Below, piece after piece: positions 7,807-64,000 of a stretch of 64,000 nucleotides of DNA. The notes under the pieces were generated by a model. It saw nothing but the letters and a program-made list of their open reading frames with translations. It was not told the DNA's origin and did not search any database. The number at the start of each line of letters is the position of its first letter. The first letter of the stretch is position 1. The stretch is from a virus (Duplodnaviria > Caudoviricetes), in the IMG/VR virus record IMGVR_UViG_3300020200_003236, positions 16,938 to 80,937 of that record; one strand, given 5' to 3'. A program made the translations under genes and the position numbers.

Positions 7807-7839
7807 ATTTTTATCTATACAATGGGAAAGACATTTTCA

Positions 7840-26034: not shown

Positions 26035-29000
26035 TTATACTATTTGAGAACCGATATTCAAAATCTGTTTGCCGGAAGACTGGAAGTGCTTTCCAGCAGC
26101 CCATCGGTAATAATTGGTTGGCTTTTGACCAACTTTGTTAGCGGCAGTATCACCCACATTCGCTTCGCTGCTTCCTGCTTTTGAACTTTCGCCGCCCTTA
26201 AATATCTTGAGAATTTGCTCCAACAAAGAAACCATTTGTTCTTGCAAATCGTTTTCTGTTGATGCCGCTTGTGCCAATTCAGACAATTCTGGCGAAGAAA
26301 TTTGAGACGCTGCTGGTTCGGACGATGCGGCATTCTGCCTTACTTGCTGATGCACATCTGCTGTTGGCGGATGTACAGCAACTTGTGGGTTGGTAGCTGT
26401 CGCTGGTTGTTCTGCCCGAACTGTAGGGTTACTCCTCTGATGTTCTTGTTCTATTCTCTGCTCTGCCGATCTAATTGAGTCTCTTTCAGCACTTCTTTCT
26501 GCTTCACGGCGAGAAGCGTTTCTGCCCCCACGTTCCAAATACTCATTGGTCGTAGGACGACTTTGTAGCGCCTGACGGATTCTATCTCCTCTATTTGGTT
26601 GCGATTGAGCTTGCTGCAATGTTTGTTGTCCTCTCTGGACAGTAGACATAGCAGGCTGTATTTGGTCCCTAGTCATAGCAGGCTGTATTTGGTCCCTAGT
26701 CATAGCAGGCTGCAATGCTTGTCTTCTGGCCTCAGACAATGGATCGCCGCCAACTCTAGGAGTTACAGTTGGATTCGCTACGTTTGCAGGAATCGTTCCT
26801 GCTACAGCCGCAGTTGGGTCTGTAGAGACGCCAACTCTAGGAGTTACAGTTGGATTCGCTACGTTTGCAGGAATCGTTCCTGCTACAGCCGCAGTTGGGT
26901 CTGTAGAGATATCTGTCTTCGGTTGTTCTACTTTTGCAACTACTTCTGTCGGGGTTTCTTGTTTGAATAACTTTTTGATTGTATCAATTAGCATTAAGTC
27001 AGTTACATACAAACCATTGCCCGGAGTAATGGCCGTTATCATGAACTGGTCCATGTCTTTAGACAAAGATGTTGCCGCTTCTTGTTCTTTGCGAGCAACC
27101 TTATCGTCTTGTACTTGCTCAGTTGGGCTACCGGCATTTACGCTCTTTCCACCTGCGGCTGCTCCACCCCCAGCTTCGGTCATCTTGTTGTTCATTTCCA
27201 AAGCGGCAAGTTCGGCCAACGGCAAAGTCTTCAACAATTCAACGTCGATCCTCATGCCCCGAATGTCTTGCATTACTTCGCTCAACATTTGCAGAGCATC
27301 CTTTAAGCCACTCATTACTTCGGCCAAGGCTGAGATTCTAGCAGCCGCTTCCTGAATTTCAGAAGACGGTGGAAGGTGCTTCTTGATTGGTTCTAAAATT
27401 CCAGTGTTCAAAGCGCTTGCTATTCCTGAGAAGTAATCTGCGAAATTGTCAGTTTGTCTTCCGATCTTCGCAATCGGGGAGAACCACCACCATCCGGTTA
27501 CAAGTGGCCCCAACTCTGTAGAAACATTATTGAGTAGCAGGGCCACCTTCTTCACAGTTTCTGCCATGCCGTCCAGTTGTCCAACAACTTCGGTAAGTTC
27601 TTCCGACGATGGGAAGAATTGTTTTATTGGATTGATTATTCCATTCACCAAGCTGGCCGCAATACCCTTAAAGTATCTGGAAAATATTGCAGTCTTTACT
27701 CCCAAAAAGATGACTGAGTTCCACCACCATCCGGTTACAAGTGGCCCCAACTCTGTAGAAACATTATTGAGTAGCAGGGCCACCTTTTTCACAGTTTCTG
27801 TCATGCCGTCCAGTTGTCTAACAACTTCGGTAAGTTCTTCCGACGATGGGAAGAGTTTTATTGGATTGATTATTCCATTCACCAAGCTGTCCGCAATACC
27901 CTTAAAGTAGCTGGAAATTATTGCAGTATCTACTCCCAAAAAAGGATTGCTTATTATTATCCAAAATACATCGTTTACAGCAGGTGCCAATCCACTCAAG
28001 AATGGTGGAACTTGCTTCACAGTTTTTGCCACGCCGTCCAGTTGTCCAACAACTTCGGTAAGTTCTTCCGACGATGGGAAGAGTTTTATTGGATTGATTA
28101 TTCCATTCACCAAGCTGTCCGTAATACCCTTAAAGTAGTCGGAAATTATTGCAGTCTTTACTTCCAACAAAGGATTGTCTATTATTGTCCAAAATACATC
28201 GTTTACAGCAGGTGCCAATTCACTCAAGAATGGTGGAACTTGCCCCACAGTTTCTGTCATGTCGTAAAGTTGTCCAACAACTTCGGTAAGTTCTTCCGAC
28301 GATGGGAAGAGTTTTATTGGATTGATTATTCCATTCACCAAGCTGTCCGTAATACCCTTAAAGTAGTCGGAAATTATTGCAGTATCTATCTTCGCAATCG
28401 GGGAGAACCACCACCATCCGGTTACAAGTGGCCCCAACTCTGTAGAAACATTATTGAGTAGCAGGGCCACCTTCTTCACAGTTTCTGCCATGCCGTCCAG
28501 TTGTCCAACAACTTCGGTAAGTTCTTCCGACGATGGGAAGAATTGTTTTATTGGATTGATTATTCCATTCACCAAGCTGGCCGCAATACCCTTAAAGTAT
28601 CTGGAAAATATTGCAGTCTTTACTCCTAAAAAGATGACTGAGTTCCACCACCATCCGGTTACAAGTGGCCCCAACTCTGTAGAAACATTATTGAGTAGCA
28701 GGGCCACCTTCTTCACAGTTTCTGCCATACCGTCCAGTTGTCCAACAACTTCGGTAAGTTCTTCCGACGATGGGAAGAGTTTTATTGGATCGATTATTCC
28801 ATTCACCAAGCTGTCCGCAATACCCTTAAAGTAGTTGGAAATTATTGCAGTCTTTACTCCCAAAAAAGGATTGTCTATTATTGTCCAAAATACATCGTTT
28901 ACAGCAGGTGCCAAGCCACTCAAGAATGGTGGAACTTGCTTCACAGTTTCTGTCATGCCGTCAAGTTGTCCAACAATTTCGGTAAGTTCTTCCAACGATG

Positions 29001-32000
29001 GGAAGAGTTTTATTGGATTGATTATTCCATTCATCAAGCTGTCCGCAATACCATTAAAGTAGTCGGAAATTATTGCAGTCTTTATTTCCAACAAAGGATT
29101 GTCTATTATTGTCCAAAGTACATCGTTTACAGCAGGTGCCAATTCACTCAAGAATGGTGGAACTTGCTTCAAAATTGCAATTGTTGCTGCCAAATTAGTT
29201 TCAGCACTTTGTATTTCTTCATTAGATGGCAATGACTCGATGATCGGGATGATAATACCTTCTCTTAGGAAGCTCGTAATGCTTCTGAACCAAGCCTTGA
29301 ATTGCTCAACACCCGCTGCCAACACAGCGATTGGAGCATCCCCCATGCAATCATTTGGATTTAGCGGCACCAACAACTTAGCCAAACCGCCGATAATTCT
29401 GGGTAAAGATCGTACAATGACATACATTGCAGAAAGTATTCTGCCCGCCAGCATTATGGTCTTAGGTTCCGGCAATTGTGTAAGAATTGGAACAACAATT
29501 CCATTCAACATAAATCTAGCAATTCCTGTGAACCATCTCCTGAACAACACGGTGTTACCAGCCAGTTTATCTGCCGGTGTGTCACTCAAAGAATCACCAG
29601 AATCCATAAGTGGAATTAGTTCGTATGCCAAACTTTTTATGACTCTAGGAATAGCCTTCACAATCACAGCCATTGCGGAAATTATTCTCGCAGCCGTTTG
29701 AATTTCTTTTGCGTCCGGCAGAATGGTTAGGATTGGAACGACTATGCCGTAAAGCATGAATCTGGCAATTTGTCTAAACCACTTTGCGAATTCTTTTCTA
29801 TTTTCAATGATTTTATCTATTGGAGAATCAGATAACAATCCGCCATCCATCAAGGCCATCACAGCGGCTAGATTTTTAATCATTGGAACAATGCCCTTAG
29901 CAATTACTGCCATTGCAGAAACAATTCTTGCAGCCGCCACAATTTGGTTTGGATCACCGAATTCAGCAATTACTGGATTGACAATGCCCGTGTGCATGAA
30001 TTTGCCAATTTGTTCAAAGTATTTTCTGAAATCCTCTTTGTTTTTGATGATTTTTTCTACCGGAGAATCCGAGAAGAAACCACCATCCATCAAAGCCATC
30101 GCATCTGCTAGGTTCTTGATGACGGGGACTGTGCTTCTGGCTACTATGGCCATAGCTCGCATAATCATCGCAGCAGCTATAATTTGCTTTGGATCGCCAA
30201 ATTCCTTGATTACCGCATTAACAATTCCGTCATTGACAAATTTGGCTGTGGCAGCGAACCAAGTTGTAAATTCACCCTTATTCTTTTCTATTTTCTTGGC
30301 AGGCGAATCCGTGAAGAAACCACCATCCATTACAGCCATTACAGAAGAAAGACTTTGTATTGCCACTCTGGTGCTGCACAACACAATTGCCAGCGATTTC
30401 ATAATCAAAGCGGCATTTTGTAAAGACTTAACATCAGATAAACCGCTAATTTGAGCCAAAATTCCAGTCTTCACAAAGTTAACTGTTTCTTGGAACCATG
30501 TTGCAAATACGTCTTTATTACTTCTGATCTTTTCTACCGGAGATGCTGTGAAGAATCCGCCATCCATTAAGCCCATAATTGCTGTTAGCGATAAAAGAGC
30601 TATTGACGTGGCTCTCAACATAAGCGCCATGCCAAGCATTGTCTTGGCTGCATTCTTGAGTTCTTTTGCATCCTTGAAATTCTGAATTCCATCAATGATG
30701 CTCTTAACGAAATTGCCAACAGATGTAAAGAATCCATTGAATTGAGGAATTGCTTCCTTAATTTTTTCAATTGGAGACGCTGTAAATACTCCGCCCTGAG
30801 TTAGTGGGGCTATTTTCTCAACCATGATTTGAATAGCAGGCAAGGCCGCTTGCAAAATTACGGCCATCATTTTGAGTGACTTCGCCGCATTCTTTAGTTC
30901 TTTTATGTTGCCAAAAGCGTTTTTGACTTGGTTAACAATAGTTGAAATAAACATAATCATCTTGGGGAAGAATACAGCCATTTTCCTCCTGGCTTCTTCC
31001 ATTTGTTCTATTGGAGAAGAAGCGAAGAAACTGCCCTGAGTCAAAGGCGTGATCTTAGTTCCTAAATCGTTCAATACTTTTGCGGTCAACGAGACTATCA
31101 TGCTTATCATGTAAAGCAAATTGACCATATTCTTTGCAGCCTTTAGATCAACCTGAGCCTGCAAACTCTTGGCGAAATCTACTACTGTACCGACGTATCT
31201 AGTCATCGGTTGTTTCATGGTATCCAATGTATCTGTGCCCTGATTCATTGCATCGACAGTTGATAGTGCCACAATCCAGAATCCCTTGCTGTAACTAATC
31301 GACATTATCTTGTCGCTGGCCTTCATGATTTGGTCTGTGACTTCGCCACACGCCGAAAGAATTGCAGCAACGCCTCGTGCCATCGAAACAGTTTGTTTCG
31401 GATTAAGTTTGGCACCCAAATCCTTGGCTATACTAACCACGGTACCGACGTATCTAGTCATCGGTTGTTTCATGGTATCCAATGTATCTGTGCCCCGATT
31501 CATTGCATCGACAGTTGATGATGCCAACCACCAGAATCCCTTGCTGTAACTAATCAATATTATCTTGTCGCTGGCCTTCATGATCTCGTCTGTGACTTCG
31601 CCACACGCCGCCAGAATCGCAGCAACGCCCTTGGCCATTTCAATTGATTGTTTCGGATCAAGTTTGGCACCCAAATCCTTGGCTATACCAACCACGGTTG
31701 CGATGTATCTAGTCATTGGTTGTTTCATGGTATCCAATGTATCTATGCCCCGATTCATTGCACCGACAGTTGATAGTGCCACAAGCCAGAATCCCTTGCT
31801 GTAACTAATCGACATTATCTTGTCGCTGGCTTTCATTATCTCATCTGTTACTTCTCCACATGCTCCGATAATCGCAGCAACGCCCTTAGCCATTTCTGTG
31901 GCTTGTTTTGGATTTAGAGAGCCACCCATTTGTTTAGCAATACGGACTACAGTTTGAATGTAGGTTCCAACTGGTCCAGCCAAATCACTAAGAGCGATTA

Positions 32001-35000
32001 CACCTTCACGCATTCTGTCGGCAACTTTGCTTCCTGTTAACCAAGCCCAGAATCCACCATATACTGGAACATTCAATAATTTGTCTTTAGCTTTAAATAT
32101 TTCTTCTGTTACTTCGCCACATGCTCCAAGAATCGCAGCAACTCCCTTAGCCATTTCTGTGGCTTCTTTTGGACTTAAAGAAGCTGCCATTTGTCTGGCA
32201 ATACGCACTACAGTTTGAATGTAGGTTCCAACTGGTCCAGCCAAATCACTAAGAGCGATTACACCTTCACGCATTCTGTCGGCAACTTTGCTTCCTGTTA
32301 ACCAAGCCCAGAATCCACCATATACTGGAACATTCAATAATTTGTCTTTAGCTTTAAATATTTCTTCTGTTACTTCGCCACATGCTCCAAGAATCGCAGC
32401 AACTCCCTTAGCCATTTCTGTGGCTTCCTTGGGGTTCAAGGAGCTTGCCATTTGTCTGGCAATACGCACTACAGTTTGAATGTAGGTTCCAACTGGTCCA
32501 GCCAAATCACTAAGAGCGATTACACCTTCACGCATTCTGCCGGCAACTTTGCTTCCTGTTAACCAAGCCCAGAATCCACCATATACTGGCATATTCAATA
32601 ATTTGTCTTTAGCTTTAAATATTTCTTCTGTTACTTCGCCACATGCTCCAAGAATCGCAGCAACTCCCTTAGCCATTTCTGTGGCTTCCTTGGGGTTCAA
32701 GGAGCTTGCCATTTGTTTGGCAATGCGAACTACAGTTTGGATATAAGTTCCAACTGGTCCGGCCAAATCACTAAGAGCGATTACGCCTTCACGCATTCTG
32801 TCGGCAACTTTACTTCCTACCAACCAAGACCAGAAACCACCATATACTGGCATATTCAACAATCTGTCTTTGGCTTTAAATATTTCTTCTGTAATTTGTC
32901 CGCAAGCGCCAAGAATATCTGCAACGCCCTTAGCCATTTCTATTGCTTGATCTGGGCTAATTTTGCCGCCAATTTTCTTGGCTATATCAACTACCGTTCC
33001 GATATAGGCTATGACTGGCTCAGACAAACTATTTAGAGCGTCCAATCCAGCCCACATCAAAGGTATAATTAACCAAGACAAAATTGAGAGTAATCCCAAT
33101 TTCACCAATGAACCCATCTGGCCTAAGATGCTATCTGTAATTCTTCCAGCGGAATCAATAACAGATGCAACGGCGTCAGCTATCTTCTGGCCTTCTTCTG
33201 GGGTGACGGTCATAGATTTCTTGGCCATGTTGATGATAGCACTTGCCAAACCAATCATCACAGGGGTTAAGAGTGTCAGTGCTATTGCACCCAAAGCCAT
33301 AAATCCTAAACCAGCCCAGAACAATGGGGTGTACAGCATGTAGCCAAGAGCAGCCAGACCTGCACCAGCAGCAATCACACTTGCAGCAATGCTACCGGCT
33401 GATTTGATTATGTCAGCAACATCGTCCGCTACTTTAGCGGCTACTGCTGGGTCCATTCCCTTGCCCATTACTCCTTGAGCAATGTCGATAATTGCCATTG
33501 CTAGTTTGATAATTGCAGGAGTAATTGCCAAAATAGCCACTGCACCTATAGCGGCCATCAAAGCCATCGACCAGAATGCTCCGGTTATTACGGCTGTTCC
33601 GAGAAGTGACAATGCCCAACCAGAAGCTAGAACGGCACCGGCAATTACACCAGCGGCAACTATTACGCCTGCTGTGTCTTCTGCTATCTTCTTAGCCACA
33701 CTCAAGTCAAGTCCTGCTGCCACTGTTATGGCTTCACCCATCTTCAATATGGCTACACCCAACGCAACTATTGCAGGAGTAATTGCCAAAATAGCTATTG
33801 CACCCAAAGCGGCTAATCCTGCCATCAACCAGAATGCTCCGGTTGTCATGGCGGCTCCGAGAAGTGACAATGCCCAACCAGAAACTAGAACGGCACCGGC
33901 GATTACGCCAGCAGCAACTATTACGCCTGCTGTATTCATTGCAGTTTCAGCGCCCATAGCCAAATCAACGCCTGCTGCCGCCATCAAAGCGGAAGACATT
34001 TTGATTATGGCCATAGCCAAAAGTAGTATTGCTGGTGTCAATATGAGAAGAGCCACGGCACCAAGAGCCATTAGTCCAGCCATAGCCAGCGTAGACATGC
34101 CGCCGTCCCACATCATTGCTCCTAAGAAATACAACGGGATACTGGCCCCAATAACGCCTAGTGCGATAACTCCTGCTGCACCAATGATTGCAGCAACATC
34201 CAGTGCGACCATAGCGGCGGTTCCCGCATCAAGGCCGAATGCTCCAAGAATCTTTGAACTCATCCAGATAATTGCACTGGCAAGCAAAACAATGGCTGGT
34301 GCTAATATCAGAAGTGCCAATCCACCTTTTCCAATGGTCCACAACATGTCATTCAAGTCGCCTTTCAGCAACGGGCTTTCTTTAAGCTTTTCCAAACACT
34401 CCACAGCTTCACTTACACCATAAGCTATTAAGCCAGCAGCGGCGGCGATTGCTCCCACTATTACTGCTGTCTCTGCTACTGTCGAAAGGTCTAATCCGAA
34501 TGCATTGGTTATTTTGTTTACCATCCAAATAATGGCAGCACCCAACAATACCAAGGCCGGTCCAATAAGAGCTACGGCAATGGCCATCTTAGCCATTTCT
34601 TTGTAATTTTCTTTTACACCAGACGCAAATTCTTTAGATTCTGACGTATCCAATTCTTTGTAAAGTTGAACTGCACCAAATGCAATTGCTCCACCAGCCG
34701 CTGCAACCGCTGCCACAGTAGCTGCTGTCTGCATTACAGTAGCCTCATCGAGGCCGAGTAAGTCAAGAATCTTCTTGCCTAAGAATATGATTGCGGCACC
34801 CAAGGCAAGGACGCCCACAGCAAGGGTTGCTATGGCGGCAGCATTTTCCATGAAGCTGCCGCCCATTTCGTCTATAACGCCAGGATCAACATCCCCGACA
34901 GGGGCCGAGGCTTGTTTTTTTAATTCTTTACTTTTGAGAGCTTTTTCAGCCTTAACATTCTTGCTCTCTTGCTTGATATTTGCAGATTTTAGTTTGTTTT

Positions 35001-37677
35001 CCCGCTTTTCTATCTTTATCTGCTTTTCTTGATGACGACGAATGCTCTTTTCTACAGCGGTCGGCTTTGCCTCGCCTTGTTTTGCTGCGGCGGCTGGGGC
35101 TGCTTTAGCAGCAGTGCTCGGCTTTGCCTCGCCTTGTTTTGCTGCGGCGGCTGGGGCTGCTTTAGCAGCAGTGCTCGGCTTTGCCTCGCCTTGTTTTGCT
35201 GCGGCGGCTGGGGCTGCTGTAGCAGCAGTGCTCGGAGAATTCTTCAAAGCACAAATACAATCTTTGATTGTTGCCAAAAGGCTGGCGATATTGCCCATTT
35301 GCTTGAGCAATCCGGTACCAATTTTATCTCTTTGTTTTTCAGCGACGTGGTCGTGGGTATATAAAGAACCTTTTGTTCTTGCCATCTCCGAGAGTCCTCG
35401 GAGGATATTGGCTTGTTCTTGTTCGTGTTTTGTTTCGCCGGTTATAAGTGTTCTTATTTCAGCCATAGTATGGTACAAAGTACCAATTAAGCCTACTACA
35501 CCAATGATGCCTGCTGCGATCACCCCAGCAATAATTAACAATTGTCCAAAGCTAGAATTGAATATCGCACTAAATCCAGCGTTGGCCAAGTTTCTCAAAG
35601 TATCATTCATCTCTCTCAAACTTTGAGCAGCAGAGCTTAATGGATCAAGTTGAGCCTTGGCAGCGGTGCTCGCTTCTTGTTCGGCTTTTGTAATCTTCGC
35701 TGTTAATTCACGGAAAGCAGCAGGGTCTTTCAATGCTCTTTCGATTTCGCTGGAATCAATCTTGAGTTCTTGTTTTCCAGCAGCCTTTAATCCCTTGTTC
35801 ACACTATCCATAGCACTCTGGATAGCCCCTCTTGCTACATCGGCTTCACTTGTCCAAGCTACGCCCAAAGCGTTCATGTCTTTTTCAAACTCGCCTCTTC
35901 TTGTGCTGAATTTGGCAAGTGCATCGCCCATATTCTTGGCACTCTTTGCCGCTTCATCCAAAGCAGTCAATGCGCCCATTGAAGCACTTAGTTTTAGCTT
36001 TCTTTGTTCTTCAAGAACTGCGGCTTTTTCTTCCAGTGTTAGATTTTGTTGAAGTTTCTTGTTTACATTCGCTAGTTTGTCGGCAAGAGTTTGGCTCGAT
36101 TGCTCAAATGCCTCAATAGTACCCATTAACTCGCCAGCTTCTACATCAAATGCTGCTTTCAATTGAATGTTAATTCTGGCTTTTGCTTGATCGGAGAGTT
36201 TTTCCCAATTAGCTCTAATTTCTTCGGCGCTATTGCCAGCAACACCAAATTGGTTGATGGTTCTCATGAACTCTTTGTTCATGCCCTTCATCGCCGCTTT
36301 GCTTTGTAGCAAAGTGCCGCTGAATAGCTTGCCATATACGCCAGCCTGATTAGCTGCCTTTGCAAGCAAAGCGAATGTGCTGGTATTGGCCGCCAACAAC
36401 TTGTTGGTGCTAGTCATAGCACCCATCAACTTGTCGCCATCAATACCAACTTTCTTGAAGTTCGCAGATAGCTCAATGATGTTCTTGACTTGTGCAGCAG
36501 TTGCAGTTCCGGCGTTCTTTAGGTTGTCTATATATTGTTTGCTGCTTTCGACTACTTCTTTGAGTGCATCGCCCGTCATGCCGGTAAATCGGGCCACATC
36601 TCTCATGCCTCGACCCATATCACCGATTTGACCCTCATTGAACTTTAGGTGTCTTGTCCAATCTACGAAGGTATCGCCCAACTCACCAGCTTTAATGCCG
36701 AGTTGTTCTTCTGTGTTAAGTTGTGCAACGGTAATCGCATGGGCTTTCTTCAAATCCTTGATGCCCATTCGGAGAGTCTTTGTGTATCTGACAATAAAAT
36801 CTTGTCTTGACTTGCCAGTTAGTTTTGCGGTTTTGTCTATATCCTCAAAAGTCCGCATTAATTGCACTTGGTCTTTTGTGGCACCGGCTATTTCATAAGA
36901 GATTTTTCTAGCTTCTTGTACGAACTCTCTTTCTTTGTCCAGAATACCTTCTGTCAAGCTGCTGAATACTCTTATTCCGAGTATCTGATCTTCTAATATA
37001 CTGGTGAGGTTTCTTGCAGCCTTTTCTCTTTCCAACCAAGGTTTTAATGATTCACCAGTAGAACCATCGGCGGGAACAGGTGTTGGTTCACCACCGGGAA
37101 CAGGTGTTGGTCCACCGCCTCCGCCACCGCCGCCTCCGCCACCGCCTCCACTTGGAATTTTGACAAGTCCTGTTTCTATTCTTTGCAGAACATCATTAAT
37201 TTGTCGTAATACACCTTCGCAGGCTGTATCATGAACTGAAATAGAATTTTTTTCCAAACCTGCTCTGGCAAACTTGCCTAAATCTCTCCACACAGATGCT
37301 TTGGGAGCATCTTTGTCTTTGACTGGTTTTTTATCTTTGGCCTTTTTGCCATCTGGCTTTTTATCTTTCTTATCTTTATTATCTTTATTATCTTTTTCCT
37401 CGCTTTTACTTTGTGCTATTTCTTTGAGAACATCGACCATTTGTTTTAAATAGTCTTTTTGTTCTTTCACAGAGTCTTGGAAGTCTTTAGTATATGTTTC
37501 AAATAGTTTGACTAACTTATCATTAGGCGCAGCATCGCCGCCTTTAGCAAAAGGCTTTGCATCACCTACAGCTTTTGTAGCAGAGGTAGCTATTAAACCC
37601 TTGATTTCTTGCAAGGAAAGATTGGTAGTCTTTTGTCCTTCTACTAATCTTCCCAAATCATCGTATAATTGAGCCAT
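26035..37677 (-). CDS. Tape measure protein (3880 aa)
   Basis: Very long helical Ala/Ile/Leu-rich ORF with a hydrophobic mid-section and Trp/Phe-anchored repeats, directly upstream of the tube initiator/LysM/hub/spike genes. Confidence 0.85.
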   Translation of the reverse strand: MAQLYDDLGRLVEGQKTTNLSLQEIKGLIATSATKAVGDAKPFAKGGDAAPNDKLVKLFETYTKDFQDSVKEQKDYLKQMVDVLKEIAQSKSEEKDNKDNKDKKDKKPDGKKAKDKKPVKDKDAPKASVWRDLGKFARAGLEKNSISVHDTACEGVLRQINDVLQRIETGLVKIPSGGGGGGGGGGGGGPTPVPGGEPTPVPADGSTGESLKPWLEREKAARNLTSILEDQILGIRVFSSLTEGILDKEREFVQEARKISYEIAGATKDQVQLMRTFEDIDKTAKLTGKSRQDFIVRYTKTLRMGIKDLKKAHAITVAQLNTEEQLGIKAGELGDTFVDWTRHLKFNEGQIGDMGRGMRDVARFTGMTGDALKEVVESSKQYIDNLKNAGTATAAQVKNIIELSANFKKVGIDGDKLMGAMTSTNKLLAANTSTFALLAKAANQAGVYGKLFSGTLLQSKAAMKGMNKEFMRTINQFGVAGNSAEEIRANWEKLSDQAKARINIQLKAAFDVEAGELMGTIEAFEQSSQTLADKLANVNKKLQQNLTLEEKAAVLEEQRKLKLSASMGALTALDEAAKSAKNMGDALAKFSTRRGEFEKDMNALGVAWTSEADVARGAIQSAMDSVNKGLKAAGKQELKIDSSEIERALKDPAAFRELTAKITKAEQEASTAAKAQLDPLSSAAQSLREMNDTLRNLANAGFSAIFNSSFGQLLIIAGVIAAGIIGVVGLIGTLYHTMAEIRTLITGETKHEQEQANILRGLSEMARTKGSLYTHDHVAEKQRDKIGTGLLKQMGNIASLLATIKDCICALKNSPSTAATAAPAAAAKQGEAKPSTAAKAAPAAAAKQGEAKPSTAAKAAPAAAAKQGEAKPTAVEKSIRRHQEKQIKIEKRENKLKSANIKQESKNVKAEKALKSKELKKQASAPVGDVDPGVIDEMGGSFMENAAAIATLAVGVLALGAAIIFLGKKILDLLGLDEATVMQTAATVAAVAAAGGAIAFGAVQLYKELDTSESKEFASGVKENYKEMAKMAIAVALIGPALVLLGAAIIWMVNKITNAFGLDLSTVAETAVIVGAIAAAAGLIAYGVSEAVECLEKLKESPLLKGDLNDMLWTIGKGGLALLILAPAIVLLASAIIWMSSKILGAFGLDAGTAAMVALDVAAIIGAAGVIALGVIGASIPLYFLGAMMWDGGMSTLAMAGLMALGAVALLILTPAILLLAMAIIKMSSALMAAAGVDLAMGAETAMNTAGVIVAAGVIAGAVLVSGWALSLLGAAMTTGAFWLMAGLAALGAIAILAITPAIVALGVAILKMGEAITVAAGLDLSVAKKIAEDTAGVIVAAGVIAGAVLASGWALSLLGTAVITGAFWSMALMAAIGAVAILAITPAIIKLAMAIIDIAQGVMGKGMDPAVAAKVADDVADIIKSAGSIAASVIAAGAGLAALGYMLYTPLFWAGLGFMALGAIALTLLTPVMIGLASAIINMAKKSMTVTPEEGQKIADAVASVIDSAGRITDSILGQMGSLVKLGLLSILSWLIIPLMWAGLDALNSLSEPVIAYIGTVVDIAKKIGGKISPDQAIEMAKGVADILGACGQITEEIFKAKDRLLNMPVYGGFWSWLVGSKVADRMREGVIALSDLAGPVGTYIQTVVRIAKQMASSLNPKEATEMAKGVAAILGACGEVTEEIFKAKDKLLNMPVYGGFWAWLTGSKVAGRMREGVIALSDLAGPVGTYIQTVVRIARQMASSLNPKEATEMAKGVAAILGACGEVTEEIFKAKDKLLNVPVYGGFWAWLTGSKVADRMREGVIALSDLAGPVGTYIQTVVRIARQMAASLSPKEATEMAKGVAAILGACGEVTEEIFKAKDKLLNVPVYGGFWAWLTGSKVADRMREGVIALSDLAGPVGTYIQTVVRIAKQMGGSLNPKQATEMAKGVAAIIGACGEVTDEIMKASDKIMSISYSKGFWLVALSTVGAMNRGIDTLDTMKQPMTRYIATVVGIAKDLGAKLDPKQSIEMAKGVAAILAACGEVTDEIMKASDKIILISYSKGFWWLASSTVDAMNRGTDTLDTMKQPMTRYVGTVVSIAKDLGAKLNPKQTVSMARGVAAILSACGEVTDQIMKASDKIMSISYSKGFWIVALSTVDAMNQGTDTLDTMKQPMTRYVGTVVDFAKSLQAQVDLKAAKNMVNLLYMISMIVSLTAKVLNDLGTKITPLTQGSFFASSPIEQMEEARRKMAVFFPKMIMFISTIVNQVKNAFGNIKELKNAAKSLKMMAVILQAALPAIQIMVEKIAPLTQGGVFTASPIEKIKEAIPQFNGFFTSVGNFVKSIIDGIQNFKDAKELKNAAKTMLGMALMLRATSIALLSLTAIMGLMDGGFFTASPVEKIRSNKDVFATWFQETVNFVKTGILAQISGLSDVKSLQNAALIMKSLAIVLCSTRVAIQSLSSVMAVMDGGFFTDSPAKKIEKNKGEFTTWFAATAKFVNDGIVNAVIKEFGDPKQIIAAAMIMRAMAIVARSTVPVIKNLADAMALMDGGFFSDSPVEKIIKNKEDFRKYFEQIGKFMHTGIVNPVIAEFGDPNQIVAAARIVSAMAVIAKGIVPMIKNLAAVMALMDGGLLSDSPIDKIIENRKEFAKWFRQIARFMLYGIVVPILTILPDAKEIQTAARIISAMAVIVKAIPRVIKSLAYELIPLMDSGDSLSDTPADKLAGNTVLFRRWFTGIARFMLNGIVVPILTQLPEPKTIMLAGRILSAMYVIVRSLPRIIGGLAKLLVPLNPNDCMGDAPIAVLAAGVEQFKAWFRSITSFLREGIIIPIIESLPSNEEIQSAETNLAATIAILKQVPPFLSELAPAVNDVLWTIIDNPLLEIKTAIISDYFNGIADSLMNGIINPIKLFPSLEELTEIVGQLDGMTETVKQVPPFLSGLAPAVNDVFWTIIDNPFLGVKTAIISNYFKGIADSLVNGIIDPIKLFPSSEELTEVVGQLDGMAETVKKVALLLNNVSTELGPLVTGWWWNSVIFLGVKTAIFSRYFKGIAASLVNGIINPIKQFFPSSEELTEVVGQLDGMAETVKKVALLLNNVSTELGPLVTGWWWFSPIAKIDTAIISDYFKGITDSLVNGIINPIKLFPSSEELTEVVGQLYDMTETVGQVPPFLSELAPAVNDVFWTIIDNPLLEVKTAIISDYFKGITDSLVNGIINPIKLFPSSEELTEVVGQLDGVAKTVKQVPPFLSGLAPAVNDVFWIIISNPFLGVDTAIISSYFKGIADSLVNGIINPIKLFPSSEELTEVVRQLDGMTETVKKVALLLNNVSTELGPLVTGWWWNSVIFLGVKTAIFSRYFKGIAASLVNGIINPIKQFFPSSEELTEVVGQLDGMAETVKKVALLLNNVSTELGPLVTGWWWFSPIAKIGRQTDNFADYFSGIASALNTGILEPIKKHLPPSSEIQEAAARISALAEVMSGLKDALQMLSEVMQDIRGMRIDVELLKTLPLAELAALEMNNKMTEAGGGAAAGGKSVNAGSPTEQVQDDKVARKEQEAATSLSKDMDQFMITAITPGNGLYVTDLMLIDTIKKLFKQETPTEVVAKVEQPKTDISTDPTAAVAGTIPANVANPTVTPRVGVSTDPTAAVAGTIPANVANPTVTPRVGGDPLSEARRQALQPAMTRDQIQPAMTRDQIQPAMSTVQRGQQTLQQAQSQPNRGDRIRQALQSRPTTNEYLERGGRNASRREAERSAERDSIRSAEQRIEQEHQRSNPTVRAEQPATATNPQVAVHPPTADVHQQVRQNAASSEPAASQISSPELSELAQAASTENDLQEQMVSLLEQILKIFKGGESSKAGSSEANVGDTAANKVGQKPTNYYRWAAGKHFQSSGKQILNIGSQIV
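27400..29300 (-). repeat. Tape measure C-terminal repeat block (about 87-88 aa units, with a 924-bp offset duplication)
   Basis: gaaccaccaccatccggttacaagtggccccaactctgtag occurs at 27481 and 28405; FPSSEELTEVVGQLDGM recurs. Boundaries approximate. Confidence 0.85.
31200..32900 (-). repeat. Tape measure internal repeats (261-bp/87-aa and 255-bp/85-aa units)
   Basis: Near-identical shadow ORFs at 32027/32288/32549 (261-bp spacing) and 31310/31565 (255-bp spacing). Boundaries approximate. Confidence 0.9.
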
Positions 37678-58500: not shown

Positions 58501-58569
58501 CAGATTTCGGTCTAAAAATGACTAAGATACCTTTACAAACCGAGAATTCTGTCGTACAATCCATACAAT

Positions 58570-58671
58570 CCTGATGTCGGAGCCTGATGTCGGAGCCTGA
58601 TGTCGGAGCCTGATGTCGGAGCCTGATGTCGGAGCCTGATGTCGGAGCCTGATGTCGGAGCCTGATGTCGG
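58570..58671 (+). repeat. 13-bp tandem array CCTGATGTCGGAG (7 full copies plus 1 partial)
   Basis: Counted directly; perfect copies with no spacers. Confidence 0.95.
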
Positions 58672-58755
58672 GGGGTTTTTCATGTGGCAGCTTTGCAAAA
58701 CCCGATACAGCTTGAGATAGGACTACTGCCAGAACCCTTTTCAAGCAAAACGTCC

Positions 58756-59955: not shown

Positions 59956-60003
59956 AAAAATCCCGCCCGGCTATTTTTACAATGGCTCGGCGGGATTTTT
60001 TTT
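59956..60003 (+). terminator. Intrinsic terminator
   Basis: AAAAATCCCGCC...GGCGGGATTTTTTTT after the ParB-like gene. Confidence 0.75.
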
Positions 60004-60128
60004 GCCCATATGGAAAAATTCCAAAATCTGGATCGGAAAATCTTTGTAACAAACCTCCCTATTGTAAAATTTTTCCAAAAACATTAAAGATAAAAATGCC
60101 CCGTAATTGCGTGGCCACCCCTCCCCCC

Positions 60129-60145
60129 TGCATCTTTCGTGCCAA
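60129..60145 (-). promoter_or_regulatory. Possible sigma-54 -24/-12 element
   Basis: Minus strand TTGGCACGAAAGATGCA; one mismatch to YTGGCACG-N4-TTGCW with correct GG/GC spacing. No obvious downstream gene. Confidence 0.3.
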
Positions 60146-60277
60146 ATTTTTCCAAAATAATTTTTTAATTGTTAATTTTGTTTAAGTTAGGATGTACCAG
60201 AGTTGAGCAAAAAATTGGTACATGCCAACATAGAAGACATAGAAAAAAAGGGGCGGGATGGTTCCCGCCCCTTCGCC

Positions 60278-60703
60278 TTAGACAAGTTCCGGTTCGACCA
60301 CTTCGACCACTTCGACCGAACCTTTGACGGTCGTTGCGCCCTTGCGCACTGCCTTCGGCAAGGCGTCAGTGATTGCCGTAACCCTTGCCATTGCCGCATC
60401 AACGTCGGCCATGCGTTCGCTAATCGCATCCTCGCCCAACCGCTCGCCAGACAATGCTTCGGTCATCGCTTCGATGAGCAACTCGGCGGCACGTTCACGC
60501 TGAAAGCCCATCTTGGCCAGTAGCAAGGCCATCGTGGCCTTCAGGGGGATGGAAATGGTCGGGGTGTATTCCCCGTCCTGATTCCGCTTGATCGTGGCCT
60601 TGACATGCAGTGTCACGGTCTCATCGACCGTGACCTGCCCAACGGGCAGGTCGGGCGTGTCTTTCAGGAGCTTCGCAATCGCCACATGCAGCAAATCGTT
60701 CAT
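60278..60703 (-). CDS. Cassette protein (141 aa), paralog of 63578..>64000
   Basis: MNDLLHVAIAKLLKDTP..., RBS GAAAGGA; ends directly at a hairpin. Confidence 0.75.
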   Translation of the reverse strand: MNDLLHVAIAKLLKDTPDLPVGQVTVDETVTLHVKATIKRNQDGEYTPTISIPLKATMALLLAKMGFQRERAAELLIEAMTEALSGERLGEDAISERMADVDAAMARVTAITDALPKAVRKGATTVKGSVEVVEVVEPELV

Positions 60704-60870
60704 CTGTTTTTCCTTTCGCAGAGGGGTGTGGGGTGTTGCGTAACCGTCCATTTCTGGTACATGCCAACATAGAAAAGAAAACAAAAGGTTCCCCTTTTGT
60801 TTAAGTTAGGATGTACCAATTTGCTCACTCAAAGAAAAAAAAGGGGCGGGATGGTTCCCGCCCCTTCGCC

Positions 60871-61224
60871 TTACGTTGTGGCGAAGTAGCCGTAAGGCAG
60901 GCCAAGCTGGAAACACAGGTGTTCGTTGTTGCCGCCCGTGTCGTGGGCATCGTGCAACCAGCGAAGGGCCGTTACTCGGTCGGGTGCGCCGCCGGTGATG
61001 AGCCGGTCGAAGAGGGCTTCGACTTCTTCAGCGGCTTGCGCTTGCGATGCCTCTTCTTCGATGCGGTTGCGTTCGCAGACGCCCGCAAGGCGTTGGAACT
61101 CGGCGTCCCACTGCGCCACCGTCCAGTTGGGCATCGCCCCACGGGGGCGGAAGCCGTAGGCGTCTTTGTGAAAGCAGCTCCAAACTTGCTGGAATTCTTC
61201 GACGGTCTGAATGGTCGTGGTCAT
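60871..61224 (-). CDS. Cassette protein (117 aa), phage-type hypothetical
   Basis: MTTTIQ...FHKDAYGFRPR...TALRWL...LGLPYGYF; GAGG upstream. Confidence 0.75.
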   Translation of the reverse strand: MTTTIQTVEEFQQVWSCFHKDAYGFRPRGAMPNWTVAQWDAEFQRLAGVCERNRIEEEASQAQAAEEVEALFDRLITGGAPDRVTALRWLHDAHDTGGNNEHLCFQLGLPYGYFATT

Positions 61225-61333
61225 GATCGGCCTCGCAGTGTAGTGTTGTGTTCCCCTCACACCCATTTCTGGTACATGCCAACATAGAAAAAAGAAAACA
61301 AAAGGGGCGGGAAGGTTCCCGCCCCTTGCTGCC

Positions 61334-61579
61334 TTACTCGCCGTAGTCCTCATCCGTGCCGTAGTAGCCGTAGTCCTCATCCGTGCCGTACCCAGCACCG
61401 GCAAGTACGTCGGCGTCGGCGTCTACGTCGTCACGGAACTGGTCTGGCTCGTCGTCGTAGTCGTCGCTGTCGCTGTCGTCGTCGCTGTCGCTGTCGTCGT
61501 AGTCGCTGTCGTCGGCCAATGCGATGGCTGCTGCGAGAAGCCGCTCGTTCTCAATGAGCAATTTTTGGAACTCGGTCAT
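61334..61579 (-). CDS. Cassette protein (81 aa), extremely acidic
   Basis: MTEFQKLL...DDSDYDDSDSDDDSDSDDYDDE...GYGTDEDYGYYGTDEDYGE; RBS GAAAGGA. Confidence 0.7.
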   Translation of the reverse strand: MTEFQKLLIENERLLAAAIALADDSDYDDSDSDDDSDSDDYDDEPDQFRDDVDADADVLAGAGYGTDEDYGYYGTDEDYGE

Positions 61580-61699
61580 CGTTTTTCCTTTCAGAGAGTG
61601 GAGTAGTGTTACCGTCCCTTTCTGGTACATGCTAACATAGAAAAGAAAACAAAAGGGGCGGGATGGTTCCCGCCCCTTGCTGCCTTACTCGCCGTCGCA

Positions 61700-61918
61700 T
61701 CACTTCACCTTGATGACACAGATGTTGGCGAGACGCTTGAACCGGATGTTCAGTGTCATGCCCGGTTGGGCATCTGCTTTGTTGATGTACCGACCTGCAC
61801 GGCCTTCTGCAAACCATGGGTCGCTGATTTGGAAGTCCTTATTGGCATCCCAATCAGCTTTGACTTCTTTGCAAGATTTGTAATCACGACCGTAAGCGGG
61901 AACGCATGTCAGATACAT
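61700..61918 (-). CDS. Cassette protein (72 aa)
   Basis: MYLTCVPAYGRDYKS...; RBS GAAAGG. Confidence 0.7.
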   Translation of the reverse strand: MYLTCVPAYGRDYKSCKEVKADWDANKDFQISDPWFAEGRAGRYINKADAQPGMTLNIRFKRLANICVIKVK

Positions 61919-62025
61919 CGCAGACCTTTCGCAAAGAGTAGTGTTTCGTAACCGTCCCTTTCTGGTACATGCCAACATAGAAAAAAGAAAACAAAAGGGG
62001 CAGGATGGTTCCCGCCCCTTCGCCT

Positions 62026-62274
62026 TTACGGGTTGAGATATTTCCCCGCTTCGTATGTGAAGACGACGGCATCCCCTTCGACCATATGGGGGATTTTCTC
62101 GCTCAGTAGGTCGGTGGCCGCTTGCTTCGTGAGGTTGAAGCCGTCCACGAATACCCGCAGCATGGCCTTGCGGTCTTTCGGGAACTTGAAGCCGTTGATG
62201 GCCCAAGCCACCATGCCGGGAGTGTGAACCCCTGACTTGCTGGTGAGTCGCACTTGAACGAGTTCGGTTGCCAT
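62026..62274 (-). CDS. Cassette protein (82 aa)
   Basis: MATELVQVRL...; RBS GGAG. Confidence 0.7.
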   Translation of the reverse strand: MATELVQVRLTSKSGVHTPGMVAWAINGFKFPKDRKAMLRVFVDGFNLTKQAATDLLSEKIPHMVEGDAVVFTYEAGKYLNP

Positions 62275-62397
62275 TGTTCGATTCTCCGTGAGTTGTTTGT
62301 TTGTTACTTCCGTCCTTCTTTGGTACATGCCAACATAGAAAAGAAAACAAAAGGGGCGGGAAGGTTCCCGCCCCGGCACGATAGCCGGACTGAACGA

Positions 62398-62715
62398 TTA
62401 GGCCGCTTTGAGCCGAGCGACCAGCAATTCCTTGAGCATTTGGGTCAAGACCGCCTTGACTTCGACGGGTTGCCCGTTGAACTTGTCCGGGCCAGCTTCG
62501 CCCAGATAGTTGTAGATCGTCATGCCCTCATCGAGCGACAGCTTGCCGGAAGCGACGGCAAGGCTCTTGAGTTCTTGGAGTTTCGCATACTCCACGAAAT
62601 CCATATCGAGCGCCTTGCGGGTTTCCTCGACCTTTGCGGCGGTCACGATGCCCTTCGCAATGCGTTCCTCAATTTGGGCCTTCATGCGGGCGATGGCGGC
62701 AACGACTCGGTTCAT
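62398..62715 (-). CDS. Cassette protein (105 aa)
   Basis: MNRVVAAIARMKAQ...; GGAG upstream. Confidence 0.7.
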   Translation of the reverse strand: MNRVVAAIARMKAQIEERIAKGIVTAAKVEETRKALDMDFVEYAKLQELKSLAVASGKLSLDEGMTIYNYLGEAGPDKFNGQPVEVKAVLTQMLKELLVARLKAA

Positions 62716-62789
62716 CTTTCGGTTCTCCGCAGGTTTGAGTTTCGTATCCCTTACACAGTAATTACGGTTTGTTTTGGTTTACTCCCAAA

Positions 62790-63008
62790 TTATGCCGCAA
62801 TTTTCGGCCAATACTTTGCGGGGAGTAGGATAGTCTTGAACTCCCACCCCGCACCGTAGGCAAGGCGGTAGTTCGTCAGTAGGTGATTGCGGTCGCTTGC
62901 ATCGGTTGCATAGTCGCAATGCTCCCACGAACGACCATAGGCCGGGTTGCGGGTGAGAATCTGGAACTTGTAACCGTCAACCGGGTCATACGCTTGTGGC
63001 CGTGCCAT
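62790..63008 (-). CDS. Cassette protein (72 aa)
   Basis: MARPQAYDPVDGYKFQIL...WEHCDYA...YRLAYGAGWEF; RBS GGAG. Confidence 0.7.
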   Translation of the reverse strand: MARPQAYDPVDGYKFQILTRNPAYGRSWEHCDYATDASDRNHLLTNYRLAYGAGWEFKTILLPAKYWPKIAA

Positions 63009-63060
63009 GTTTGTACTCCGCAGGGTTTGTTGCTTCCGTCCCTCTCTGGTACATGCTAAC

Positions 63061-63489
63061 TTACTGGTCTATGGTGTAGGTGAAGCTAAACCCTTCCATA
63101 TCGAAATTGATGTAGGGATGATCTTCGACGCCATGCGTATCCCCTTCGACGGAATAGGATACGTCGAAGCCCATTGATTGCTTGAGCGTATTCAACGCTG
63201 CAAGGCATTGCTCGAACTTCTGGCGAGCGGCGGGCAGGTGCTTGGCGATTGCTTGGCGTGCCGCTTCATGGGTGAGATAATACCCATCGAGCGAAAAAAC
63301 GGTTGTGTTGATCGACCGCTTGCGGGGTTCGATGTGAATAACGTCATTCCACCAAACGGCGTAGTAAATAACGTCGATGCCGTACTTGTGGCGGTTGAAC
63401 GTCACTTCGGGATACTTCGCAAGCAATTCGTTCGCAATGGTTTCCCGTTGTTCGGCAAACCGCTTCGCACGTTGTTCTGATGTTTCCAT
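63061..63489 (-). CDS. Cassette protein (142 aa)
   Basis: METSEQRAKRF...; RBS GGAGG; its TAA is part of the downstream motif. Confidence 0.7.
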   Translation of the reverse strand: METSEQRAKRFAEQRETIANELLAKYPEVTFNRHKYGIDVIYYAVWWNDVIHIEPRKRSINTTVFSLDGYYLTHEAARQAIAKHLPAARQKFEQCLAALNTLKQSMGFDVSYSVEGDTHGVEDHPYINFDMEGFSFTYTIDQ

Positions 63490-63577
63490 TTGTTCCTCCG
63501 TCCCTTTCTGGTACATGCTAACTTAGAAAATAGAAACAAAAAGGGGCGGGATGGTTCCCGCCCCTTCGCCTTTCGGC

Positions 63578-64000
63578 TTAGAACAACTCGGCAGCATCGA
63601 CCAGCACGGCGACGGGTTCCGGTTCGATCACTTCGACCGAACCCTTGACCGTTACCGCACCCTTGCGGGTTTCCTTCGGCAAGGCGGCGGTGATTGCCGT
63701 AACCCTTGCCATTGCCGCATCCACGTCGGCAAGGCGGGCGAGTACCGTTTCCTCGCCTAGCAGCCCTTCGTTGAGGGCTTCGGTCATGGCGTCAACCAAC
63801 AACTCGGCGGCACGTTCCCGCTGGAATCCCATCTTGGCGAGCAGCAAGGCCAGCGTAGCCTTGAGGGGGATGGAAACGGTCGGGGTGTATTCCCCGTCCT
63901 GATTCCGGCGAATCGTGGCCTTGACATGCAAGGTCACGGTTTCGTCCACTTCGACCACTCCCACCGGAACGTCCGGCGTATCCTTGAGCAGCTTGCCCAA
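63578..64000 (-). CDS. Cassette protein, 5'-truncated by the window edge; paralog of 60278..60703
   Basis: Shares DETVTLHVKATI.RNQDGEYTPT.SIPLKAT.ALLLAKMGFQRERAAELL with 60278..60703. Confidence 0.75.
   Translation of the reverse strand: MGKLLKDTPDVPVGVVEVDETVTLHVKATIRRNQDGEYTPTVSIPLKATLALLLAKMGFQRERAAELLVDAMTEALNEGLLGEETVLARLADVDAAMARVTAITAALPKETRKGAVTVKGSVEVIEPEPVAVLVDAAELF

Follow-up and report, generated by a model that had tools for sequence, protein, structure and literature searches.

The closest described counterparts of the locus reported here are the PeSLs (promoter early stem-loops) of T4-type phages, in which a terminator stem-loop and a strong early promoter lie together between the ORFans of hyperplastic regions, mediate modular shuffling and form mini-circles (PMC2839356, PMC4122927). 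In huge phages, sigma genes have been reported (PMC7162821). We analysed a 64,000-nucleotide (nt) stretch, called the window below, of a tailed virus (Duplodnaviria; Caudoviricetes), corresponding to positions 16,938 to 80,937 of the IMG/VR record IMGVR_UViG_3300020200_003236. In its last part, 60176–64000, eight same-sense copies of a junction motif and seven terminator hairpins frame nine small minus-strand genes. We propose, with a probability of about 0.68, that this region is the end of a PeSL-like hyperplastic cassette array belonging to a freshwater tailed phage of about 0.5 Mb, with a dedicated lineage-specific promoter and homologous shuffling.

Organisation of the array in the window

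Read from 64000 down to 60176, the array comprised nine open reading frames (ORFs) on the minus strand, eight of them complete (142, 72, 105, 82, 72, 81, 117 and 141 amino acids, aa) and one cut by the window end. The array continues beyond this point, the window end being probably an assembly break in the repeats. The parts followed one order in seven intergenic gaps: stop codon, hairpin GGGGCGGGAACC(A/T)TCCCGCCCC, T-run, CTAWGTTRGCATGTACCAGARRGG, a variable leader of 20–50 nt between CTAWGTTRGCATGTACCAGARRGG and the ribosome-binding site, then the ATG. Scanning the window with the 12-mer GCATGTACCAGA (at most one mismatch) gave seven minus-strand occurrences between 60753 and 63518, a degenerate eighth copy at 60214–60225 and an opposite-sense copy at 60190–60201, and in the other 60 kb of the window the best match was no better than two mismatches. 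Thirteen matches were observed against 3.85 expected, a number reached by none of 100 shuffles. The repeat search returned a 39-nt unit as eight in-register copies and a 26-nt hairpin as seven copies, and the terminator scan recovered the same seven hairpins, with 9–12 pairs and a T-run (folding energy of −30.9 kcal/mol, z = −4.4). All seven terminators were followed by a motif copy within about 20 nt. The unit formed by hairpin, T-run and motif (about 65 nt, repeat D2) recurred seven times between unrelated genes, ungapped and with 60–100% identity to the reference copy, a recurrence that points to copy-paste or gene conversion, as far as can be read from the sequence.

A preliminary description of this DNA, made from the letters alone, had counted eight same-sense motif copies and seven hairpins, and these counts were confirmed by the motif, repeat and terminator scans, the array being even longer than claimed. 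The nine small minus-strand genes in a GC-richer block were likewise found in the ORF list, with a GC content of 0.53–0.55 as compared to 0.37–0.47 (roughly 0.40) for the greater part of the window. The view of the cassettes as mostly unrelated single genes held for the majority, with two qualifications: the first gene is a paralogue of the last (81% DNA identity, repeat D3), and gene 62398–62715, which has no motif of its own, trails the 72-aa gene in a two-gene unit. In addition, two opposite-sense motif copies were present, at about 60183–60201 and 60800–60818. The features are as follows, motif copies coming from the repeat and motif scans and hairpins from the repeat and terminator scans where nothing else is given.

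63578–64000, minus strand: cassette gene truncated at the window end, its version in contig L006 having 148 aa; paralogue of gene 60278–60703
63540–63567, minus strand: terminator hairpin GGGGCGGGAACCATCCCGCCCC and T-run
63498–63525, minus strand: junction motif copy, TAAGTTAGCATGTACCA followed by GAAAGGGACGG; the ribosome-binding site GGAGG begins 10 nt past the TGTACC core
63061–63489, minus strand: cassette gene, 142 aa; no family match; another gene in its place in the related contig L044
63036–63063, minus strand: junction motif copy without terminator; the TAA stop of the upstream gene lies inside the motif
62790–63008, minus strand: cassette gene, 72 aa, phrog_27749 (unknown function); homologue in the array of the related phage G005, 78% identical
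62398–62715, minus strand: cassette gene, 105 aa, in the two-gene unit; no motif of its own
62353–62374, minus strand: terminator hairpin and T-run
62310–62337, minus strand: junction motif copy, ACCAAA variant
62026–62274, minus strand: cassette gene, 82 aa (ORF list)
61994–62021, minus strand: terminator hairpin and T-run, with one G-T pair
61952–61979, minus strand: junction motif copy
61700–61918, minus strand: cassette gene, 72 aa (ORF list)
61653–61678, minus strand: terminator hairpin and T-run; −30.9 kcal/mol, z = −4.4
61612–61639, minus strand: junction motif copy
61334–61579, minus strand: cassette gene, 81 aa, acidic and rich in D, S and Y (ORF list)
61302–61327, minus strand: terminator hairpin and T-run
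61259–61286, minus strand: junction motif copy
60871–61224, minus strand: cassette gene, 117 aa, phrog_21968 (unknown function), from a PHROG match
60840–60867, minus strand: terminator hairpin and T-run
60800–60818, plus strand: second opposite-sense motif copy (repeat search, D2)
60744–60771, minus strand: junction motif copy, back to back with the opposite-sense copy across a collapsed hairpin
60278–60703, minus strand: final cassette gene (141 aa), from a family represented three or more times in the array
60247–60274, minus strand: terminator hairpin and T-run, past the last gene
60205–60232, minus strand: last motif copy, degenerate (ACCAAT); no gene after it; faces an opposite-sense copy
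60183–60201, plus strand: opposite-sense motif copy TAAGTTAGGATGTACCAGA at the array end (motif scan; repeat search, I1)

Extent of the array beyond the window

Near-identical metagenome contigs from Lake Tanganyika that overlap and extend the window were found by exact-protein look-ups, and four overlapping ones made up a composite array of 36,955 nt. Its first 29 kb held 53 same-sense and four opposite-sense motif copies, which gives the array an extent of 29 kb or more. The median spacing of the motif was about 440 nt, with a leader typically of 40–50 nt. The motif core was retained with or without a preceding terminator: half of the copies in the window phage had none and abutted or overlapped the upstream stop codon, and such copies can hold the upstream TAA inside the motif (TAAGTT).

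Outside the array, isolated motif copies were present on other large contigs of the same lake (72, 55, 27 and 26 kb). The metagenome motif scan gave multi-copy matches from Lake Tanganyika samples only; two marine matches (L026, L042) lay inside conserved coding sequence and look like chance. The IMG/VR motif scan returned single matches only, among which those on two giant contigs of 26–29% GC (L002, L003) also look like chance. The region had no BLAST match among 50,697 phage records, and the motif string retrieved nothing but unrelated primers from the literature.

The junction motif as a putative core promoter

The motif was a contiguous block, TAWGTTRGCATGTACCA, followed by GARARGG. Its information profile showed a single block, from TA.GT through TGTACC plus 3–4 nt, then a weaker purine-rich stretch, with no low-information spacer, and the motif RNA had no fold of its own (z = 0.12). 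In several copies the ribosome-binding site began 4–10 nt past TGTACC (window 63507; G005 271027 and 288270), so that the start of the RNA must be at or inside the motif. The motif also stood 9 nt before a tRNA gene in contig L043 and 20 nt before another in L006. Its presence before tRNA genes and before a unit of about 60 nt without ORF excludes a translation-level role. These positions suggest that the motif is a core promoter.

Described promoter classes were compared with it. Sigma-70-like sites occurred at chance level (2 versus 2.3 expected; 9 versus 8.1) and none was at a junction. The −12 element of sigma-54 promoters (TGGCAC-N5-TTGC) was absent, as judged by eye from the information profile. 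An N4-type hairpin promoter was discarded, the motif having no stem and its R position breaking the sole possible pairing. TAWGTTRG fitted five of six positions of the Bacteroidetes TAnnTTTG element, but the spacing of TTTG was wrong, the ribosome-binding sites were strong and the G005 motif did not fit. The Rfam search of the junctions gave noise hits only, with no family match.

Equivalent arrays in related huge phages

The baseplate protein of the window phage had hundreds of relatives in IMG/VR. Three related huge-phage lineages carried the same kind of array; two were checked for location, and in both it occupied the same relative position. The four arrays compare as follows.

Window phage: Tanganyika composite, at least 29 kb, 53 copies; motif TAAGTTGGCA-TGTACC-AGAAAGGGACGG; GC 0.53–0.55 versus about 0.40
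G005: 340,341 bp, estimated 69% complete; array at 265–293 kb, about 65 same-sense copies; motif TAGGTC(CAG/TAT)-TGTACC-CTAGTGGGTGT; GC 0.52 versus 0.47
G006: 144 kb; about 25 copies; motif TTAAT-TGTATT-TTTGAAACGG; GC 0.47 versus 0.39
G010 (the L179 sequence, a 673-kb scaffold): 532,729 bp, 100% complete according to CheckV; about 22 copies; motif TTTAGnnnT-TGTACC-CTAG; GC 0.60 versus 0.52

In full form, the motifs were TAGGTC(CAG/TAT)TGTACCCTAGTGGGTGT in G005, TTAATTGTATTTTTGAAACGG in G006 and TTTAGnnnTTGTACCCTAG in G010/L179. All lineages shared the TGTAYY core and a TA.G element located 3–6 nt upstream, and the flanks differed. The baseplate protein of G005 was 69% identical to that of the window phage, and the G005 array lay at the place syntenic with the window, adjoining homologues of window genes 55687–53806. 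Its terminator hairpins were all different (non-repeated) while the motif was kept, and many copies, lacking a terminator, abutted or overlapped the upstream stop codon. In G010, all 14 exact copies of the motif were found at 214.7–233.2 kb in the forward orientation, with none elsewhere in the genome. A motif that is both array-specific and lineage-specific is what would be expected of a promoter with a dedicated, co-evolving factor. The relatives, of 0.34–0.53 Mb, encoded DNA polymerase III alpha, an NAD-dependent ligase and several sigma genes.

Several other observations concern these arrays. In G010/L179, about 14 of the 22 listed junctions carried GGTACAAA...TTTGTACC inverted repeats with arms of 11–16 nt (L179 7925–7985, 9700–9760 and 13222–13282; G010 213–234 kb). 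Compensatory changes between copies preserved the pairing, which places the promoter core on the 3′ side of a stem; two of three folds had a z of about −3. The array was 5–13 GC points above the rest of the genome in all four lineages (window 60001–64000; G005 265–295 kb; G006 50–75 kb; G010 212–236 kb), which may reflect biased gene conversion where exchange is frequent, a cassette pool held in common, or selection. The opposite-sense copies paired with forward copies, both in the window (60183–60201, 60800–60818) and in G005 (268232, 284439, 291717, 293071 and 293133, minus strand), and at the array end of both phages forward and reverse copies faced each other; a roadblock, an antisense RNA or an inversion scar are the possibilities that we see. 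Frequent 21-mers in G008 were rejected as junctions, being coding repeats of 7 aa; several genes made of 21-nt tandem repeats of the G-D-V-S-G-I-x type lay at 1150–1750, 9390–10200 and 28750–31200.

Rearrangements at the junctions

Comparison of related contigs revealed differences in cassette content and order. In L024, a copy of another cassette was inserted exactly between two motif copies. Two genes were additional in L012, one lying between duplicates of an 85-nt junction and the other inserted just past a promoter. At one site, the same two junctions enclosed three different states: the 148-aa gene followed by the 142-aa gene in the reference, 148, X and 142 in L038, and 148 and X′ with no 142 in L044, a contig about 80% identical and from a different project. 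The hairpin of L044 showed a compensatory change from C-G to A-T. The gene orders of L040 and L032 also differed from that of the composite. About 10 of 14 breakpoints fell at most 25 nt from a motif (P = 3e-8 under a uniform distribution, 2.5e-3 when only non-coding DNA is considered). On a larger scale, about 22 of the 74 array ORFs had a homologue in the G005 array, with 38–78% identity and in scrambled order; the flanking backbone genes tested were collinear with G005. No tyrosine recombinase (PF00589) was found in G005 or G006, where controls were positive, or among the window ORFs scanned. In view of this result in G005 and G006, we infer that homologous exchange is the simplest route.

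The evidence supported the two functional readings of the preliminary description together. A shuffling platform is supported by the insertions, replacements and re-orderings centred on junctions; identical gene order in all relatives would have spoken against it, and the opposite was observed. It had seen neither an attC site nor a strict sigma-70 PeSL, and indeed there was no attC fold and no sigma-70 box, the lack of a match to a known Rfam or sigma-70 promoter family being borne out by both searches. Its suggestion of individually insulated units under a dedicated polymerase or sigma agrees with the array- and lineage-specificity of the motif. It had also advised looking for a recombinase or phage RNA polymerase: neither a tyrosine recombinase (G005, G006) nor a T7-like polymerase was found, and sigma-70-family genes appeared in relatives.

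Candidate reader and proposed model

Sigma-70-family ORFs were present in the relatives G005 (four), G010, G011 and G012, and three of the four G005 ORFs scanned had region 2 as well as region 4. When relatives of the G005 sigma were sought by pattern, the sole match was this sigma itself. Upstream of one G005 sigma gene was TTTACA-N17-TATAAT. This host-like promoter fits a cascade in which the host enzyme would transcribe the phage sigma gene, and the sigma would then open the array. If the motif is a promoter, a phage sigma acting with the host core enzyme would come first among the candidate readers, at slightly less than an even chance; an unrecognised phage polymerase would be a more doubtful reader and the host sigma alone an improbable one, the remainder going to other readers or to a motif that is not a promoter.

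We propose the following model. The array would consist of tens of small accessory genes, nearly all on one strand and mostly forming separate transcription units. Each unit would start with a lineage-specific core promoter of about 17–20 nt and a purine-rich initial transcribed stretch (TAWGTTRGCATGTACCA then GARARGGRCGG), and many would be terminated by a GC-rich hairpin and a T-run. The promoter is not of the host sigma-70 type and is confined to the array, bar a few isolated copies from the same lake, which argues for a dedicated factor co-diverging with the motif. The reader would most likely be a phage sigma-70-family protein redirecting the host RNA polymerase and, less likely, a phage polymerase unrecognisable by the searches used. 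The 30–65-nt junction, recurring every 440 nt or so (median), would also serve as a substrate for homologous recombination, which may insert, delete, replace and re-order whole genes, each retaining its expression signals as in the PeSLs of T4-type phages.

More tentatively, and at less than even odds, the observations could be extended to a widespread clade of freshwater phages of about 0.5 Mb, each with a "cassette bank" of 20–30 kb at a fixed position. Such a bank would hold 20–70 single-gene units, each under a contiguous promoter some 20 nt long that is built on the TGTAYY core, is present nowhere else in the genome and is read by a co-diverging atypical sigma or new polymerase; capture and shuffling would proceed without integrase, and exchange would drive the GC excess. 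The moraphage lineage (PMC12619734), which lacks tRNA synthetases, is probably not the present clade.

A number of points weigh against the proposal. We infer promoter activity and the position of the transcription start from sequence position alone. The contiguous 20-nt block abutting the start differs from the bipartite −35/−10 geometry of sigmas with regions 2 and 4, and looks more like the promoter of a single-subunit polymerase. No T7-like polymerase (PF00940) was found in the relatives' records, including G005, G006, G008, G009, G011 and G010, a negative of unproven sensitivity as the family matched no control genome either, and no sigma gene was found on the known parts of the window phage's own DNA. 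Four of the 14 breakpoints were not at a motif, the breakpoint statistic was scored by hand, and the rearrangements were read from short-read metagenome contigs, in which repeats can mis-assemble.

Alternative explanations

The best surviving alternative, which we hold to be unlikely, is that the motifs are the promoters of a phage single-subunit RNA polymerase (T7- or N4-like) or of a novel one, possibly delivered with the virion, the array being its gene class. A contiguous block of about 17 nt with a purine-rich start is indeed found in T7, T3 and SP6 promoters, related phages share a common core with different flanks, the terminators are stable hairpins with a U-run, and the G010/L179 core, as the 3′ arm of inverted repeats of 11–16 bp with compensatory changes, recalls hairpin promoters. 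However, PF00940 was missing from the relatives, the complete-rated G010 included, as was the beta subunit (PF00562, no match in the relatives' records, including G010), and T7 motif B (R-x3-K-x7-YG) was absent from the ORFs of at least 300 aa of the window and G005. The large G005 ORFs scanned had other assignments or none, and the 3880-aa ORF of the window, in tape-measure position, gave low-complexity matches only.

It is quite improbable that the junctions are true PeSLs, with ordinary host-type promoters read by a host primary sigma of unusual consensus, TAWGTT being a −10-like element with T-rich DNA upstream and the conservation a result of copy-paste. TAAGTT and TATGTT do retain T1, A2 and T6 of TATAAT, the DNA upstream of terminator-linked copies is T-rich, and PeSLs are also conserved over about 100 bp. 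Nevertheless, there is no −35 element, and the terminator-less copies keep the core but not the T-rich part. The motif varies among related phages (TAAGTT, TAGGTC, TTTAG) and is absent from the other 500 kb of the complete-rated genome G010, and the canonical TTTACA-N17-TATAAT before the G005 sigma gene suggests that the host enzyme would read normal promoters.

Still less probable is a role of the motif in the RNA, as a processing site cutting long transcripts or as a stabilising 5′ end. The absence of a terminator at many G005 copies and at half of those of the window phage, which abut or overlap the upstream stop, would suit such a role, as would the long stem of the G010/L179 junction, T7 early RNA being processed at such stems; but a motif located after a strong terminator is not transcribed from upstream, yet the motif follows seven of seven terminators in the window, where its RNA is unstructured, and isolated copies precede single genes and tRNAs on other contigs. 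Finally, dedicated site-specific recombination or transposition sites, whether integron-like attC or elements of IS200/IS605 (miniature inverted-repeat or palindrome-associated transposable elements, MITE/PATE) spread into intergenic DNA, are the least credible explanation of the cassette architecture, junction-centred breakpoints, inverted copies and decayed TnpB-like ORF beside the array end, given that no tyrosine recombinase was found in G005, G006 or the window ORFs scanned, that G005 lacks the TnpB segment at the syntenic position, that the copies are same-sense at a fixed distance before start codons, and that the hairpin, a perfect GC stem followed by a T-run, is no attC fold, the G005 hairpins all differing while the motif is kept.

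Cargo of the array and surroundings

The cassette cargo comprised DUF families and two PHROGs, none with known function, and an ESM Atlas search for the 141-aa family returned nothing. Two tRNA genes with a structured insertion of 65–71 nt in the anticodon loop were located at L043 1592–1721 (minus strand) and L006 3668–3805 (plus strand), each directly 3′ of a junction motif, and a homologous insertion-bearing tRNA cassette was present in G005 near 287480. They were missed by ARAGORN and scored above the gathering score of the Rfam tRNA family (49.5 bits for L043, 33.8 bits for L006); the insertions fall short of the length of a group I intron. At L006 4119–4200, a mini-unit made of the promoter motif, about 60 nt without ORF and a standard terminator is a small RNA candidate.

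At the array head was a 535-aa protein without Pfam family (L020 440–2047; G005 268554–270218; L179 10001–11611). It had 787 relatives on contigs of up to 673 kb, with identities of 52–99% among the 120 listed. It carried the GHKL-type motifs E-x3-N-A-x-D and G-x-F-G-x-G-N-K, and its structural model (pLDDT 86) gave Hsp90/TRAP1 as the best, weak, fold matches (E of about 3e-3). Because of these motifs and matches, it was rejected as polymerase or factor of the array. Elsewhere, the clade encodes Ro60/TROVE-vWA homologues, a WGR-PARP protein, a class I tRNA-synthetase-like protein, DNA polymerase III alpha and an NAD-dependent ligase, the loci being listed jointly as L039 3290–5092 (minus strand) and G005 104326–106074, 160839–162536, 108642–111230 and 5641–8457.

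The rest of the window corresponded to the module of a contractile-tail phage, with a baseplate hub OB domain, P2-I-like and PKD-domain proteins, and accessory genes that were CCA-enzyme-like, HAD phosphatase, histidine phosphatase, C39 peptidase and HODM-like. The window scans found no tRNA, polymerase or recombinase there. Just upstream of the baseplate genes, in tape-measure position, a giant ORF (26035–37677, minus strand, 3880 aa) had low-complexity matches only. Its G005 counterpart (312408–321749, 3114 aa) was 34–41% identical over about 1500 aa, and a tape-measure-like protein of great length is its probable identity. Its reading as a virion polymerase of the N4 kind was rejected on its lack of polymerase motifs, its low-complexity PDB and Pfam matches and its position. 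The segment 56295–60176 was missing from the syntenic place in G005, indicating an insertion between array and backbone. It contained the HODM-like gene, a decayed TnpB-like ORF that adjoins the array end, and a 416-aa ORF without family; the TnpB-like ORF came with eight copies of a 13-nt tandem repeat, at 58557–58697. The 416-aa ORF, absent at the G005 syntenic place, was rejected as a factor of the array.

Comparison with known systems

Huge phages have hundreds of genes of unknown function, whose expression and exchange are largely unknown, and the array offers a compact and recognisable promoter class marking one regulon per genome. This class could be used for the annotation of transcription units, for a search of the cognate factor by co-variation across lineages, and as a source of orthogonal expression parts. 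The cargo, with its GHKL/Hsp90-like protein common to the clade and its tRNAs bearing unusual insertions, invites a search for anti-defence or host-takeover proteins. The shuffling of "mobile regulatory cassettes" known from T4-type phages would exist at a much larger scale in an unrelated group, with a promoter not of host type.

Like the promoters of the T7 group, the motif is a conserved block of about 17–23 nt ending at a purine-rich start, it is accompanied by hairpin and U-run terminators, and related phages share a common core and differ at specificity positions. In contrast, those of the T7 group are distributed across middle and late genes and do not precede every small gene of one array, and the window and the relatives, including the complete-rated genome, yielded no such polymerase gene. 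With integrons, the array shares the same-orientation succession of single, mostly unrelated small genes and a repeated junction for cassette gain and loss. It differs by the absence of a detected integrase and of an attC fold, by the hairpin missing at many junctions, and by a promoter for each cassette instead of one shared Pc; its exchange is best explained by homologous recombination. The phage sigma cascades (SPO1 gp28 and gp33/34; T4 gp55) also involve a phage-specific promoter class unlike the host consensus, and the relatives have sigma-70-family genes, one of which, in G005, has a host-like promoter, whereas the elements read by known phage sigmas are short or bipartite, unlike a contiguous block of 20 nt located at the start site.

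The PeSLs remain the nearest relatives in organisation, with several differences. The promoter is not the host sigma-70 consensus, a defining feature of PeSLs, but a contiguous block that is particular to each lineage and confined to one array. With 50–70 units in 28 kb or more, the array is on a far larger scale, and it is GC-richer than the rest of the genome. The phage that carries it is a freshwater phage of about 0.5 Mb whose relatives have DNA polymerase III alpha, a tRNA-synthetase-like gene of class I and several sigma genes; as far as tested it is not a T4 relative, T4 core genes not having been searched for, and it has contractile-tail baseplate genes. In both systems, a composite of terminator stem-loop (poly-G/poly-C) and promoter lies between small ORFans clustered in a variable region, insertions, deletions and replacements among relatives break inside the element (here in L024, L012, L044 and L038), and the genes that move keep their own signals.

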